Shown here: positions 21,000 through 29,748 of the stretch, piece after piece
Layout of the letters: every line of letters begins with the position of its first letter
How positions within the stretch are numbered: position 1 is the stretch's first letter
Origin: a virus
Virus record (IMG/VR): IMGVR_UViG_3300045541_000131
Location: 32,001 to 96,000 of that record
Strand: one strand, 5' to 3'
DNA length: 64,000 bases
Notes under the pieces: model-generated
Told to the model about the DNA's origin: nothing
The model's input: only the letters and a program-made list of their open reading frames with translations
The model's database searches: none
Made by a program: the position numbers and the translations under genes

Positions 21000-22342
21000 G
21001 ATTAAGCGATTTACAAGAAAGTCAAACTGTCGTCGAAGACGCAAATCCTGTACAAAAGGCAGCAGTACATTTCTTTAACAGTAAAGTTGGCGATGTAGAC
21101 AAAGAAGCCGTTGATAACTATGTAGACGCTGCTAACAGTCTTTATAAAAAAGCACAGCAACAGGGTTTTGGCGATCAAGTAAAGCAAGCATTAGTTAAAG
21201 CCAAGAAAAGTCCTTATTTACAAGGTGGTGTTGTTACTACCATTGGTGCTGTACTTACTGGCGGATTATTAGCATCAGCACAGAGATTTGGCTTAACTCC
21301 TGGTCAAACAAATATGTTATTACAAGCAGTATTGAATACAGTTATTCCTACTGTAGTTAGTCGCATTAATGGTCGCAGTTGGGATGAAACTATTAAGTAT
21401 ACATTGGCCAGTGCCGCTACTGGCATAGGTGCCGCAGCAGCCATGGGCGAATCAGACTACAGTCCAATGACCAAAGACGCAATGAAAGCAGACAAGATCC
21501 GCAGTCTAGAGAATCTTATTGCCAAGTACAAAGAACAAGGTCGCCAATTAAAAGTTCAAGAACTTGAATTAGAACTAAAGAAACTACAAGGTGTGGCAGA
21601 AGGCCCATTGAATGAATCCGATAAATTTACTAGTTGGTATGATTGGAAAGATCAGGCTATAAGTAGTGGGTATACTATTACAAAAAAAGATGATAAAATT
21701 GTAGCATTGAACAAACAAGGCCAAATAGTCGGTCATTGGTCTGATGTTGGTAGGTTTCTAAGTGGTAAGGCACCGCGCCCAAATTTCAATGCCGCAATGC
21801 GGGCAAAAAAAAATCTAGATAATGAGCAAGGTGTGGCGGAAGAAATCAATCCCGAAGTTAAACAACCTGGGTTTAAGCATCGAATCGTAATAGGCGATTA
21901 CATCTATAGTGCCAAAGGCTCTCCCAGTGGCCTAAGGATAGAATGCCACGATAGTGAAGGTACACTTTTAGGCTACGCTCAGTTTATGTTTTACCGAGAC
22001 CACCTTGAAAGTCAGTATACTAAAGTTCGTAGTCAATACCAAGGCCAAGGTATAGCCAGCAATATGTATGCTTACGCACACATGCTAGGCAATGATATTC
22101 AGCCAAGTCCTTATTTAGAGCCTGACGGTAAAAAAATGTGGCGAGCATTCAAAAAATCCGGGGCGGCAAAAATTATGGCCGGTGATACAGTTAAGGAAGC
22201 CAAAATGAGTGCTGCTGTTAGATTTCAGCGTGCCATGGATCGCGAGCGTGCCAAAACTGATGCCCATTATCGAGCAGGCAAAGAAGTAATGGCTCGTGCT
22301 CGTGCCGAACAAGACAAGAAAAAAGAACAAGAGAAAAAATGA
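20996..22342 (+). CDS. Modular putative internal virion protein containing a GNAT acetyltransferase domain
   Basis: MRLSDLQE leader, two QGVAE junctions, and GNAT motif A V.SQYQGQGIA..MY. Confidence 0.7.
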   Translation: MRLSDLQESQTVVEDANPVQKAAVHFFNSKVGDVDKEAVDNYVDAANSLYKKAQQQGFGDQVKQALVKAKKSPYLQGGVVTTIGAVLTGGLLASAQRFGLTPGQTNMLLQAVLNTVIPTVVSRINGRSWDETIKYTLASAATGIGAAAAMGESDYSPMTKDAMKADKIRSLENLIAKYKEQGRQLKVQELELELKKLQGVAEGPLNESDKFTSWYDWKDQAISSGYTITKKDDKIVALNKQGQIVGHWSDVGRFLSGKAPRPNFNAAMRAKKNLDNEQGVAEEINPEVKQPGFKHRIVIGDYIYSAKGSPSGLRIECHDSEGTLLGYAQFMFYRDHLESQYTKVRSQYQGQGIASNMYAYAHMLGNDIQPSPYLEPDGKKMWRAFKKSGAAKIMAGDTVKEAKMSAAVRFQRAMDRERAKTDAHYRAGKEVMARARAEQDKKKEQEKK

Positions 22343-22527
22343 AAACAATACACTGGTTCTATTTTGTATCAGCTCTTTGCGTAACATTTTTCGCAGGCTT
22401 AGTCTTAGGCATGATTGCCATGCGAGATTTTATGGCCGAAGAATTTATTGTTATAGATCCTGAAAAACTTCAGCACTATCGTCAGATTCATGAACCTGTA
22501 AAAAAATCTCAAGGAATGACAGCATGA
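22339..22527 (+). CDS. Small membrane protein
   Basis: 62 aa with one N-terminal hydrophobic helix; ATGA overlaps at both ends. Confidence 0.55.
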   Translation: MKTIHWFYFVSALCVTFFAGLVLGMIAMRDFMAEEFIVIDPEKLQHYRQIHEPVKKSQGMTA

Positions 22528-27388: not shown

Positions 27389-28783
27389 ATGAAACTATTT
27401 GAATTATTCGAAAGCCCAATGATGACTGGGGCCAGCAATCTAAAAGTTATTGCCGACGCAGTCAGAAGCAGTACCAGTGCTGAAATCAGCTTGGGCGGTG
27501 AACCAGTAACACTAGAGCCACAAGAAGCAAACTATGTTTATAGTTTGTACAAGAGCGCATTAGAGAATGGTCGTCAAGAACAGTTTATGCAAATGCTCAG
27601 TGATCCACAAAGTTTTGATCGCATCATGGGCGGCATGCGTACTCGCATGGATACCATTCAACAAAAGATGTCAGGTACACACCCTAGCATGACAGGTGCT
27701 GCGGCAACTCGTATCGGTCAGCCTGGCGTGCAAGAAGATGCTCCTTTGGCAACTCCAGATCAACCTGCTGAAAACACACATACATTAAAGTATATTGTCA
27801 AGCGTTTTCCTAAAGAAGTTAAAGAGTTTTTCGGTACAGGCGAACTAGATGAGCATTTATACGATGCGTTATTTGATTACTACAACATGCATGGCGAAAT
27901 GCCATATGGCGTTGCTAAGGCTCGCACAGCCGATCCGATTCAGTGGATTGGTGACAGATTCGAAAAAGACGCACAACCATATCTTCACTTACATGAAAGT
28001 CTAACCGAAGCTAAGAAGGCAGTTTCTGAGCGTTGGGATGATGACGATGATGATTGGTGGGGTCTAAAAGACAAAAAGACTAGTAAGACCAGCGCAGGCG
28101 GTACAGTTACACAAACCGGCACCGGTGTTGTTCACAAAGGCAAATATGGCAGTGAATACCAAGGTGATGATGGCGACGACGATGACTACGATGAGTGGGG
28201 CAAGAAAAAACCCGAAGCTAAGGCCAAGGCTGCTGCTAAAAAGGCAGCTGATAAAGCAGCTGAAACAAAACGCAGTCGTGGACGCCCAAGTGCTGCTATC
28301 AAATCAGCCGACGGCAGTGAAACAATCAGTGACTACAGTACATGGTATCGTAAGAGCAAGCGCAGCCACCCTGAGCGTAAGATTGCTGGCAGTGCTAACA
28401 AAGCTGTGGCAGTTATTCCTAAGGGTAAGAAGTTTGCTGTAGTTGGTTCATGGGATGGCAGCAAAGGTAGTATTATGGCTAAAGCAGGAGAACTAATGAC
28501 TGCCGACCAATTAAGTAGCTTTAAGAGTGCCAAAGGTCGTCCTAAGAAAGTTCGTGAGTTCATCGAAAATCTACGCTATGTCGTAGAAGCTAAAAATGAC
28601 ATGGGCGAAACAGAATACACTACTTACAGCGGTTGGAAGGCTGCTTGTAAAAAGGCCGGGGCCGACAAGTTTGACGGTGACCGCGATATTTGCCAAGCTA
28701 TGAAAGATGGCAAGGGCGTAGGCGAGTGGGACGGTGCTGTGGGCACAGTTTATGATGACGCACATAAGAAAGCAGCAAAATGA
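27389..28783 (+). CDS. Modular putative internal protein with acidic and basic tracts and AT-hook-like RGRP/KGRP motifs
   Basis: MKLFELFE leader; repeated Y..W...VG.WDG modules. Confidence 0.65.
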   Translation: MKLFELFESPMMTGASNLKVIADAVRSSTSAEISLGGEPVTLEPQEANYVYSLYKSALENGRQEQFMQMLSDPQSFDRIMGGMRTRMDTIQQKMSGTHPSMTGAAATRIGQPGVQEDAPLATPDQPAENTHTLKYIVKRFPKEVKEFFGTGELDEHLYDALFDYYNMHGEMPYGVAKARTADPIQWIGDRFEKDAQPYLHLHESLTEAKKAVSERWDDDDDDWWGLKDKKTSKTSAGGTVTQTGTGVVHKGKYGSEYQGDDGDDDDYDEWGKKKPEAKAKAAAKKAADKAAETKRSRGRPSAAIKSADGSETISDYSTWYRKSKRSHPERKIAGSANKAVAVIPKGKKFAVVGSWDGSKGSIMAKAGELMTADQLSSFKSAKGRPKKVREFIENLRYVVEAKNDMGETEYTTYSGWKAACKKAGADKFDGDRDICQAMKDGKGVGEWDGAVGTVYDDAHKKAAK

Positions 28784-29748
28784 GACTAAATGACATCAGC
28801 GAAGGCGTAGCAGGTCCTAAGAATTGTTGGCCTGGTTATCGTAAAGTAGGCACTAAGCCAGGTACAGGCAAGAACGCCGGTAAGCGTGTCAACGACTGCG
28901 AAAAGATCAAAGAGAGCGTTGATATAGAAGACACATATAAAGGTTGGAAGTTTGAAGTTGAATTTCAAAAAGAAGATGACCGTAATGTAACATTTTATAG
29001 TGCTGTTAGTCCTGAAGGCAAAACTCATATGTTGCCCAAGCGAGCAACCAAAGAACAGTTTAGACAGTTTGTTGACAGCAAAACTGTCAAAGAAGGCCAA
29101 GTAACTAAAACTAAAACTGGCATTATTCATCGAGCCACAGACAAGTATGGAGCAGGAGAAACCGGTTTTGGTGACTACGGCTTAGAAAAAACTGCCATGG
29201 ACTTAACAGCCTTAAACAAGGATCTAACTAGTCGACTAGACAAAAGCATGGGTGTTAAGCACGACCATGGTAATAAAAAGAAAACAAAAGAAGGCTTAGG
29301 TGATGAAATCAATCCTGCTGATCGTGGCGAATATGATCGCGAAGGTGACATGGCCATTAATCAACTAAAGACTATCGAAGACGCTGCCACAGAATTACGC
29401 AGTATCTTAGACGCAGAAGATAACTTGCCTGAGTGGGTTCAAGCAAAAATTACTAAGGCTGTAGACTATATTGATACTGCTCGCGATTATATGAAGTCTA
29501 AAGAGCAGGGTGTAACTGAAAGAGTTAGAGATCCCGAAGATTGGGACGAAGGCACTGATAAAATACCTAATAATATTGAAGTTAGTATCAATGGTCGTTC
29601 ATGGAAAGTTTTTGCTGGACGCGGCTTGCCCGACAGTCGAGAAGAACGCAATCATTTAACTAAAATGAAACAGTGGGCAGCAAGCAAGAGTGCTGCTACT
29701 GGTAAGCAATGGGAAGTGCGTCTAACTGGTGCACCAGTTAGTCGTTAA
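28780..29748 (+). CDS. Modular putative internal protein
   Basis: MRLNDISE leader; short modules separated by IKE/VKE/TKE/QGVTE. Confidence 0.65.
   Translation: MRLNDISEGVAGPKNCWPGYRKVGTKPGTGKNAGKRVNDCEKIKESVDIEDTYKGWKFEVEFQKEDDRNVTFYSAVSPEGKTHMLPKRATKEQFRQFVDSKTVKEGQVTKTKTGIIHRATDKYGAGETGFGDYGLEKTAMDLTALNKDLTSRLDKSMGVKHDHGNKKKTKEGLGDEINPADRGEYDREGDMAINQLKTIEDAATELRSILDAEDNLPEWVQAKITKAVDYIDTARDYMKSKEQGVTERVRDPEDWDEGTDKIPNNIEVSINGRSWKVFAGRGLPDSREERNHLTKMKQWAASKSAATGKQWEVRLTGAPVSR

Follow-up and report, generated by a model that had tools for sequence, protein, structure and literature searches.

Polymorphic toxins of bacteria carry demarcation motifs (VENN in CdiA, PxxxxDPxGL in Rhs) that mark the border between a constant part and swappable cargo, and the Rhs motif is also the site of proteolytic release; these are secreted proteins with immunity genes, each of them carrying one cargo, and the motif is preceded by a long stretch of conserved DNA. 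Integrons consist of attC cassettes and the IntI integrase, and their arrays of unrelated cassettes are separated by a recurring site. The stretch analyzed here, 64,000 nucleotides (nt) of a viral genome (positions 32,001 to 96,000 of IMG/VR record IMGVR_UViG_3300045541_000131; hereafter, the window), contains a recurring 16-nt word inside genes that encodes the peptide QGVAE in frame and brackets unrelated protein segments. We put the probability at roughly 60% that QGVAE is the standard in-frame joint of a modular protein family in a clade of giant T4-like freshwater phages, serving both as an exchange patch and as a protease site. This arrangement resembles the integron in combining unrelated cassettes with a recurring site and differs in that no integrase was found in the proteins scanned, inverted repeats are absent, and the site is translated and intragenic; the domains of polymorphic toxins are absent here.

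Closer parallels are found in T4-type phages. The T4 internal proteins IPI, IPII and IPIII, and Alt, carry a capsid-targeting sequence that is removed by the prohead protease gp21 (PMC9026906, PMC3012670). The first 10 residues of IPIII are such a removable targeting leader, gp21 cuts after Leu/Ile-x-Glu (PMC9026906), and T4-like phages place varied cargo behind such leaders (PMC9026906, PMC3012670). The proteins described here resemble the T4 internal proteins in the short leaders of the same shape that some of them carry, in diverse and fast-changing cargo, in putative hydrophobic-x-Glu cut sites, in a gp21-family protease (encoded by some relatives) and in a gene location away from the head block. 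They differ in that each T4 internal protein is a single module with a loose site rule, whereas here several unrelated modules are joined in one chain by a five-residue word that is fixed together with its DNA; removal of the leader by gp21 is known in T4, whereas packaging and cutting are here read from sequence only and one motif-bearing protein has no leader.

The PeSL cassettes of phages RB49 and phi1 provide homology linkers for the insertion, deletion and replacement of genes, a system that its authors liken to integrons, and T4-type recombination needs less than 50 bp of homology (PMC2839356). PeSL cassettes and the present word have in common a short conserved DNA element that flanks non-essential modules and the use of the phage's own recombination, but a PeSL is an intergenic promoter and terminator that moves whole open reading frames (ORFs), whereas the word is intragenic, translated, frame-keeping, only ~20 nt long, and moves modules; PeSL mini-circles have been shown, whereas the present case is known from contigs only. 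In T-even adhesins, exchanges occur within or near conserved motifs, the glycine-rich motifs of gp38 and the motifs of gp37 (PMC3157838); in that description the motifs form the core of one fold, separate loops in a fixed order and are not protease sites, whereas here the joined modules are autonomous. Polyvalent proteins combine 2-15 unrelated effector-type domains; packaging and delivery together with the DNA are predicted for them, and cutting into active parts has been proposed (PMC5512222). Their release is ascribed to built-in peptidase domains and no universal joint is described for them, whereas here one DNA-fixed joint is reused; a Pfam search detects neither a processing peptidase nor polyvalent signature domains in the proteins scanned, save for a sub-threshold Peptidase_G2 match. 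The joint departs from the nearest T4-type mechanisms by having a translated, frame-keeping linker between autonomous modules, and it probably doubles as a cut site. No description of a QGVAE junction was found in the literature searched, supplements and subscription journals lying outside the search, and all listed matches to the string "QGVAE" concern alpha-synuclein.

A pattern search of the window with CARGGTGTGGCNGAAG identifies three exact matches, at 21587, 21827 and 26447, all on the plus strand. These, two degenerate copies and the genes and segments that they delimit are the following (aa, amino acids; L012 and the like are related viral loci, P0002 and the like are related database proteins):

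21587..21602, + strand: junction copy 1, CAAGGTGTGGCAGAAG, exact match; QGVAE is residues 198-202 of ORF 20996
21827..21842, + strand: junction copy 2, CAAGGTGTGGCGGAAG, the consensus 16-mer, exact match; QGVAE is residues 278-282 of ORF 20996
26447..26462, + strand: junction copy 3, CAGGGTGTGGCGGAAG, exact match; QGVAE is residues 48-52 of ORF 26306
26936..26951, + strand: degenerate junction with 2 mismatches; EGMAE is residues 211-215 of ORF 26306; right edge of cassette 2
29506..29521, + strand: degenerate junction with 3 mismatches; QGVTE is residues 243-247 of ORF 28780
20996..22342, + strand: ORF 20996, a 448-aa modular protein with the leader MRLSDLQE; modules delimited by profile, homology and an AlphaFold2 (AF2) model
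21602..21826, + strand: cassette 1, a small 75-aa alpha/beta module including the 3' junction codons up to 21826; delimited by homologues and depth
21452..21826, + strand: block that varies among close strains, comprising a helical linker, junction 1 and cassette 1; delimited by contig joints and P0002
26306..27385, + strand: ORF 26306, 359 aa, without a T4-like leader; N module, junction, cassette 2, degenerate junction, C module
26462..26935, + strand: cassette 2, 158 aa, bracketed by the 26447 and 26936 junctions
28780..29748, + strand: ORF 28780, 322 aa, leader MRLNDISE, degenerate QGVTE junction; from the ORF list and profile scan

All five junction copies are in frame. Pattern matching and a frame check thereby confirm what the initial annotation had reported, namely three exact and two degenerate in-frame copies that encode QGVAE, EGMAE or QGVTE; its coordinates for the junction ends were off by one base, the next codon starting one base earlier because the 16th base of the word belongs to that codon. 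The exact 16-mer has a mean of 0.00 occurrences in shuffled sequences, with three or more copies in none of 100 shuffles, and when up to 3 mismatches are allowed, 13 matches are found versus 1.71 expected, the copies at 26936 and 29506 among them. Across the 138,652-base (b) viral contig of which the window is a part (completeness rating 33%), the pattern CA[AG]GGNGTNGCNGA[AG] fits only the three exact copies, and a six-frame scan for the peptide [QE]G[VMIL][AT]E gives 5 occurrences, all within one gene array. The syntenic relative L012 contains QGVTE at the same place as the 29506 copy, with one silent difference. Two pairs of junctions bracket segments of 75 aa and 158 aa, and comparison of the window copies detects no DNA similarity outside the 16-mer, so that the description of these pairs as direct repeats around unrelated segments stands. 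In this genome, GTG accounts for 10-12% of Val codons and GCG for 4-5% of Ala codons; GGT, GAA and CAA are common. The argument that the silent positions reveal a constraint on the DNA beyond that on the peptide is right: both GTG and GCG are uncommon in this genome but predominate among the copies in relatives. The accompanying impression that the bracketed segments deviate in codon use holds for one of the two only: cassette 2 is atypical in synonymous codon use (0.2nd percentile, one of six tests) with a normal third-position GC content (GC3), whereas cassette 1 is ordinary (GC3 0.28 versus a null of 0.33; synonymous log-likelihood at the 10th percentile).

Protein-based searches lead to 14 related viral loci (the L series) in which QGVAE recurs and its letters are nearly always identical. 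The genome-wide count of the 16-mer that the initial annotation had called for yields just the three copies on this contig and at least 120 loci, with at least 171 copies, among viral contigs; among the matches listed, 34 loci carry two or more copies, a multiple of three nt apart, and all but one of the 171 copies (170) encode QGVAE in a frame that stays open for at least 60 aa. In 311 xGVAEx copies from related viral contigs, counts that are inflated by ascertained copies (seeds retrieved by the exact word), the codons are GGT in 306, GTG in 281, GCG in 278 and GAA in 285, against backgrounds in the same ORFs of 0.45, 0.19, 0.067 and 0.80, respectively; for the 125 non-seed copies, obtained by subtraction, the numbers are 120, 95, 92 and 99. 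The variant codons are GTA (22), GTT (6) and GTC (2) for Val and GCA (25), GCT (6) and GCC (2) for Ala. Once one ascertained copy per locus is dropped, the exact 15-mer is present in 55 of 89 QGVAE copies at the loci listed, compared to ~0.3% expected. QGVAE is also the most recurrent 5-mer in distinct contexts (181), with a pairwise DNA identity of 0.655 versus 0.010 expected.

The cleanest evidence that the DNA itself is fixed comes from bases that the search did not specify. Whichever residue precedes Gln, its codon is NAG (AAG 52 to AAA 9, GAG 37 to GAA 17, CAG 33 to CAA 1), 111 of the 134 Gly residues that follow the joint are encoded by GGC versus a background of 0.30, and the residue that follows the junction (G, A, D, E or V) is encoded by GNN in 293 of the 311 copies and in 107 of the 125 non-seed ones. 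A sequence logo reaches background 2-3 bases beyond the word on each side, with no information in the flanks: the word is 89-100% fixed per position, and its 276 distinct contexts retain no residual flank similarity. The comparison shows that the element is conserved as nucleotides over ~18-20 nt, (A)G CAA GGT GTG GCG GAA G(GC), with silent positions that do not vary freely across ~200-300 copies, contrary to what a purely peptide-level constraint had been expected to leave. Five large motif-bearing records contain 4-8 copies each, clustered, with all the copies of a cluster on the same strand, and the DNA polymerases of four of these records are 55-60% identical to that of the window; fixation of silent sites at such a distance would, if the double role proposed below holds, represent a rare and clean case of nucleotide constraint inside coding sequence. 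A synonymous control 16-mer is also found at at least 120 loci, which makes the raw locus counts of word and control not comparable; the copies per locus differ, in that the control never occurs more than once per locus among the matches listed.

Strain-level breakpoints in the DNA come from a comparison of the window with contigs of four independent lake-metagenome runs (X3, X5, X6 and X9). The depth drops to 0-4.4 over cassette 1 (bin 21563-21783) in all 4 runs and to 0-5 over cassette 2 in X3 and X6; over cassette 2 it is 6-14 in X5 and X9. In X3, similarity to the window breaks off at 21451 in one contig and begins again at 21827 in another; in X6, a single contig connects 21451 with 21828 through 7 different letters and keeps the frame. 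At cassette 2, a contig joins 26436 to 26937 with 11 other letters, again in frame, and contig joints resume at 26937 and 26951. The joints 21451>21828 and 26436>26937 each leave one junction and no cassette, so that in-frame "empty" forms, of the kind that the initial annotation had proposed to look for, are seen in single contigs for both cassettes. Among pairs of copies that share one flank only, DNA similarity stops at the far edge of the motif in 36 of 50, a figure weakened by the fact that counts of pairs and of high-scoring segment pairs are counts of non-independent events. Homology ends within 7 residues of a junction for 25% of starts and 20% of ends, compared to 7% for random positions.

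At the protein level, ORF 20996 has 150 database relatives, nearly all of which match one module only. From the QGVAE at residue 278 to the C-terminus, P0002 and P0003 differ from the window protein at a few positions only; upstream of junction 2, P0002 has a different middle block (replacing 21452..21826) and P0003 a wholly different front. This comparison is of proteins, and a scan with the GNAT module for the corresponding DNA gave nothing among viral sequences and 2 irrelevant loci among metagenomes. Copies of cassette 1 that are 72-80% identical are found in L001-L011, with different neighbors on both sides, including at least 4 different kinds on the right, and always bounded by xGVAE; the module is also present in P0070, P0099, P0103, P0106 and P0109. 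The N and C modules of ORF 26306 are kept in its orthologues in L012 and L013; between them, L012 has two other cassettes, and in the alignment the variable block begins at the 26447 junction. Relatives have up to 8 junction-bounded segments, ORF 20996 itself has 3-4 modules, and modules found here also occur with GH19 chitinase and LysM or with cytidylyltransferase. Several unrelated domains are thus combined variably in single phage polypeptides, and a conserved DNA element, judged by both conservation and breakpoints, flanks the modules that are inserted, deleted or replaced. These alignments show that modules are added, lost and replaced among related phages and that the breakpoints lie at the word or within it, as expected if indels in homologues coincide with the motif.

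The evidence for a protease site starts with the leaders, which are a property of the array in which the junctions lie:

17378..30246, + strand: same-strand gene array from the ORF list; 11 genes with M-K/R-x-x-x-hydrophobic-x-x-E leaders, one of them with a GTG start

ORF 20996 and ORF 28780 are among the 11 leader-bearing genes. Leader-like N-termini are found in 30 of 103 motif-bearing ORFs versus 77 of 956 others, a 3-4 times enrichment. In the T4 record (NC_000866.4), the leaders of ipII and ipIII end with I-A-E followed by A, the same shape as that of the window leaders; x-A-E occurs at several places in the scaffold protein gp22, and gp23 has an L-T-E whose Glu is residue 65. The junction reads V-A-E followed by Gly, Ala, Asp, Glu or Val. 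Gp23 and Peptidase_S77 (the gp21 family) are detected above the Pfam cut-offs in 3 of the 5 large motif-bearing records, in the T4 gene order, and L-V-A-E|G and L-L-A-E|S are found in the scaffold and capsid proteins of these 3 records. In two records (G002 and G004), no capsid gene was matched by Pfam models or by the capsid protein of G001, which has no weight either way. The most telling point for a protease site is the equivalence of leader and junction as module starts: one and the same module directly follows the leader Glu in one phage and xGVAE in another (two cases in family F3, and ORF 29761 of the window compared to L008 and L049). The joint is located between folded modules: both junctions of ORF 20996 are at or in low-confidence linkers, junction 1 ending helix 184-198 just before the low-confidence stretch 205-209 and junction 2 lying inside the disordered stretch 253-293, in an AF2 model whose weakness overall (mean predicted local distance difference test score 65, predicted template modelling score 0.30) lessens the value of this observation. 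Taken together with the T4 precedent, these features make it plausible that the junction is a cut site of a gp21-type head protease, with cleavage after xAE.

A number of observations weigh against this combination of exchange and cleavage. Each of the two "empty" joints is represented by one contig, with a depth of ~4, 85% likeness and 27 and 56 letters, respectively, on the shorter side. Of the one-flank pairs, 14 of 50 break elsewhere, and 65-73% of homology breakpoints are more than 15 residues away from a junction, so that the motif, although breakpoints do fall on it, is not the only boundary. The variable block of ORF 20996 has its left edge at 21451, 136 nt ahead of junction 1, and L013 joins the same two modules of ORF 26306 with no cassette and no motif. 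The control 16-mer reads QGVAE in 106 of 120 copies among the matches listed, and therefore the peptide exists elsewhere with ordinary codons. At P3, the junction has Val or Met where the T4 rule calls for Leu or Ile. A leader is present in no more than 30 (strict pattern) to 50 (loose pattern) of the 103 motif-bearing ORFs, and ORF 26306 has none although it holds two of the five copies. Neither gp21 nor gp23 has a match in the 33%-complete fragment that includes the window, control genomes being likewise unmatched in the gp21 search, and 2 of the 5 large relatives have no gp21 or gp23 match, one of these being rated 99% complete. Conservation for the sake of exchange would be second-order selection, and the present data do not distinguish it from selection that acts directly on the word as RNA or DNA. 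Finally, the readings of cleavage, packaging and recombination are all comparative.

The mechanism that we favor would work as follows. The identical short DNA word would provide a homology patch at which the recombination and replication machinery of the phage itself swaps modules in frame. Copies that take part in exchange would stay uniform, and copies that drift would become fixed local linkers, such as EGMAE and QGVTE. The V-A-E sequence followed by a small residue would be a site for the gp21-type prohead protease, so that, with the leader as a targeting signal, the chain would be cut into free modules inside the head, and these would be delivered with the DNA, like the T4 internal proteins and Alt. 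Proteins injected by phages form a front line in the contest with bacterial defences, and their renewal is known in outline from T4 internal-protein loci, PeSL and polyvalent proteins; here, one short word appears to give a frame-safe place of exchange and may mark the point of separation by a protease. If true, this would explain how uncultured giant phages build and reshuffle large effector sets, and would provide a sequence tag for candidate packaged effectors in metagenomes and a rule, taken from nature, for designing T4-type capsids that carry several cargo proteins.

A different explanation of the same conservation is that the junction is a linker and protease site only, its nucleotides being held by selection on translation or mRNA (a pause at the rare codons GUG and GCG, or the Shine-Dalgarno-like AAGGUG, a likeness judged by eye only), and that the swaps are simply viable breakpoints in linkers. 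The position of the copies, in frame in 170 of 171 listed cases and between folded parts, the rarity of GTG and GCG, the many breakpoints elsewhere and the motif-free L013 are all compatible with this explanation. However, selection for slow or fast codons fits poorly because the word mixes rare codons (GTG, GCG and the preceding NAG) with the commonest ones (GGT, GAA, CAA); the nucleotides are also fixed where the residue changes (Glu, Lys and Gln all with NAG, and GNN after the joint in 293 of 311 copies, or 107 of 125 non-seed copies), and similarity ends at the motif edge in 36 of the 50 one-flank pairs. Selection on translation alone accordingly appears rather unlikely to us. A doubtful possibility of similar standing is that the ~20-nt word is a dedicated dual-coded signal, at which a phage factor (a nuclease, a recombinase or template switching) would recognize it as nucleic acid and drive the in-frame exchange, insertion and excision of modules, and the same codons would form the protease site; if true, this would be a natural in-gene cassette system that assembles injected effector sets among co-infecting giant phages.

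The initial annotation had suggested an integron-like mechanism operating inside genes; as a true site-specific system, this would mean that a dedicated recombinase or homing-type nuclease recognizes the ~20-nt word and that cassettes are excised, perhaps as circles. In length the word would suit a nuclease or recombinase as a target, its edges are sharp, the cassettes are bracketed by direct repeats with one copy kept in the empty forms, genes resembling homing endonucleases (read by eye) adjoin the capsid gene in these phages, and PeSL cassettes of T4-type phages form mini-circles (PMC2839356). Nevertheless, no recombinase family is detected in 10 ORFs scanned with Pfam and PHROGs or in 5 ORFs and 5 ORF parts scanned with Pfam, nor is any integrase, transposase or nuclease family found in the scanned ORFs. 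Neither the logo nor direct reading shows dyad symmetry, attC-like inverted repeats or a stem-loop in the consensus word or its flanks, and many swaps have only one breakpoint at the word. The copies are not intergenic promoters with stem-loop terminators either: the word is 16-20 nt long and, among the matches listed, is translated in 170 of 171 copies, so that copies outside a reading frame are essentially absent. A site-specific system is a minority reading because no integrase was found in the ORFs scanned and there is no dyad symmetry and no set of non-coding copies; this part of the initial proposal is not sustained, its probability is low, and recombination at short homology seems more likely than an integron-like mechanism.

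Comparably improbable is that the uniformity merely reflects history, with modules and their attached joints having spread horizontally and recently among co-infecting lake phages and the word having no function in exchange. Most variants are one transition off the consensus (GTA 22, GCA 25) and modules are common to many architectures, as such a history would predict; yet the flanks of the 276 contexts retain no residual similarity around a word that is 89-100% fixed, the host genomes of the word differ by 40-45% in DNA polymerase, and, with adjoining modules that often share no more than 50-80% identity, drift would be expected at the silent sites of the word too. A chance or compositional repeat, or an assembly artefact, is already refuted: the word is short and single copies arise by chance in high-GC bacteria (55 of 56 loci being single-copy), but 0 of 100 shuffles reach 3 copies, the copies are in frame at spacings that are multiples of 3, and they recur in independent assemblies and studies.

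Four other interpretations of the letters were dropped on inspection. The 5' end of a group II intron (GUGYG-like letters) does not fit cassettes that are coding and far too short; an internal translation start would need a start codon at a fixed distance, and there is none; for a frameshift or hop site, there is no slippery heptamer and both sides are in one frame; and a Chi-like site does not match the E. coli octamer.

The contig contains T4-type replication genes and is from an uncultured giant T4-like freshwater (lake) phage. Among isolates, the DNA polymerase is closest to those of Sinorhizobium phage Phosso (49%), Agrobacterium phage Atu_ph07 (46%) and Klebsiella phage fENko-Kae01 (43%), of which Phosso and Atu_ph07 are jumbo phages; the 13-mer core has 0 copies in Phosso, 1 (with one mismatch) in Atu_ph07 and 0 in fENko-Kae01. 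Megablast with 19281-29748 and tblastn with ORF 20996 and ORF 26306 gave no match among 50,697 phage records. The stretch 20900-27500 is present whole or in part in 20 public runs from 13 studies, all of them compared as contigs, not raw reads, and all labeled as freshwater, lake or aquatic metagenome; the sequence may itself derive from two of these runs, and there are no RNA runs among the 20. A tRNA scan of the whole contig found none. In bacterial and archaeal genomes, the 18-mer is found at 56 loci, of which 55 are single-copy and mostly in high-GC actinomycetes, these single copies being probably due to chance. The only multi-copy locus among the 56 is an 8,950-b contig of a Bacteroidetes metagenome-assembled genome (L311), with three 18-mer copies at 108, 465 and 960 that are 357 and 495 apart and thus in frame; probably this is phage DNA that was binned with a bacterium, and it is a weak host hint at most.

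One of the large motif-bearing records (G001, 524,565 b) contains two different DNA polymerase copies on opposite strands (18719-21427 and 508485-511193), 57% and 55% identical to that of the window, and its junction clusters at 176.5 kb and 524 kb share one 381-nt spacing. This assembly may be chimeric or concatenated, and therefore its "100% complete" rating should be treated cautiously. In two loci (L255, 2669-3649, and L257, 2633-3379), ORFs that by eye resemble GIY-YIG or HNH homing endonucleases follow right after the capsid gene, the same place at which T4 has segD.

The leader-bearing array of the window encodes several enzyme-like proteins, namely DUF6267, a cytidylyltransferase-like HxGH protein, an amidoligase, a GNAT-like module and a HAD phosphatase fused to a kinase-like domain, which would be an unusual cargo if packaged. 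ORF 20996 starts with the leader, followed by a hydrophobic helical module (residues ~15-152), a helical hairpin and junction 1; after cassette 1 and junction 2 come the GNAT-like module and a long C-terminal helix. The GNAT matches are weak (E 8e-4 to 0.01, under the Pfam cut-offs), as is the Peptidase_G2 match of cassette 1 (E 0.008, 16 bits versus a cut-off of 25); cassette 2 has no family match in Pfam. The helical module (window 21040-21451) consists of two long Gly/Ala-rich hydrophobic helices, is the part that most of the 150 relatives match, and sits at the front, in the middle or at the end of proteins with GH19 chitinase and LysM, cytidylyltransferase or GNAT; it may be a membrane-active or envelope-directed delivery module. 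Its last residue, Glu152 (21449-21451, A-M-G-E), marks a second kind of boundary, where the N module ends with hydrophobic-x-Glu: the strain-level breakpoints fall exactly after it, and relatives end the module with similar x-x-E strings. L012 (5495-5872) lacks ORF 20996 and the 62-aa hydrophobic ORF 22339 (window 20996-22527) and is otherwise syntenic; the gap, between the amidoligase-like and HAD/kinase-like genes, represents a gene-level indel.

The start of ORF 26306 overlaps the last codons and stop of the leader-bearing ORF 26026 (26306-26313). Around this overlap (window 26204-26424, the end of ORF 26026 and the start of ORF 26306), the summed depth is several times that of the neighbors (198, 124, 42 and 24.5 in the four lake runs), and many loose contig ends are located at 26259 and 26306. 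Given this depth peak and the loose ends, a small Cys/His-containing module (KYK.SI.C.NPKGFSQ.AHC) encoded here is common to many contexts; the same module also ends or interrupts the relatives P0049 and P0099.

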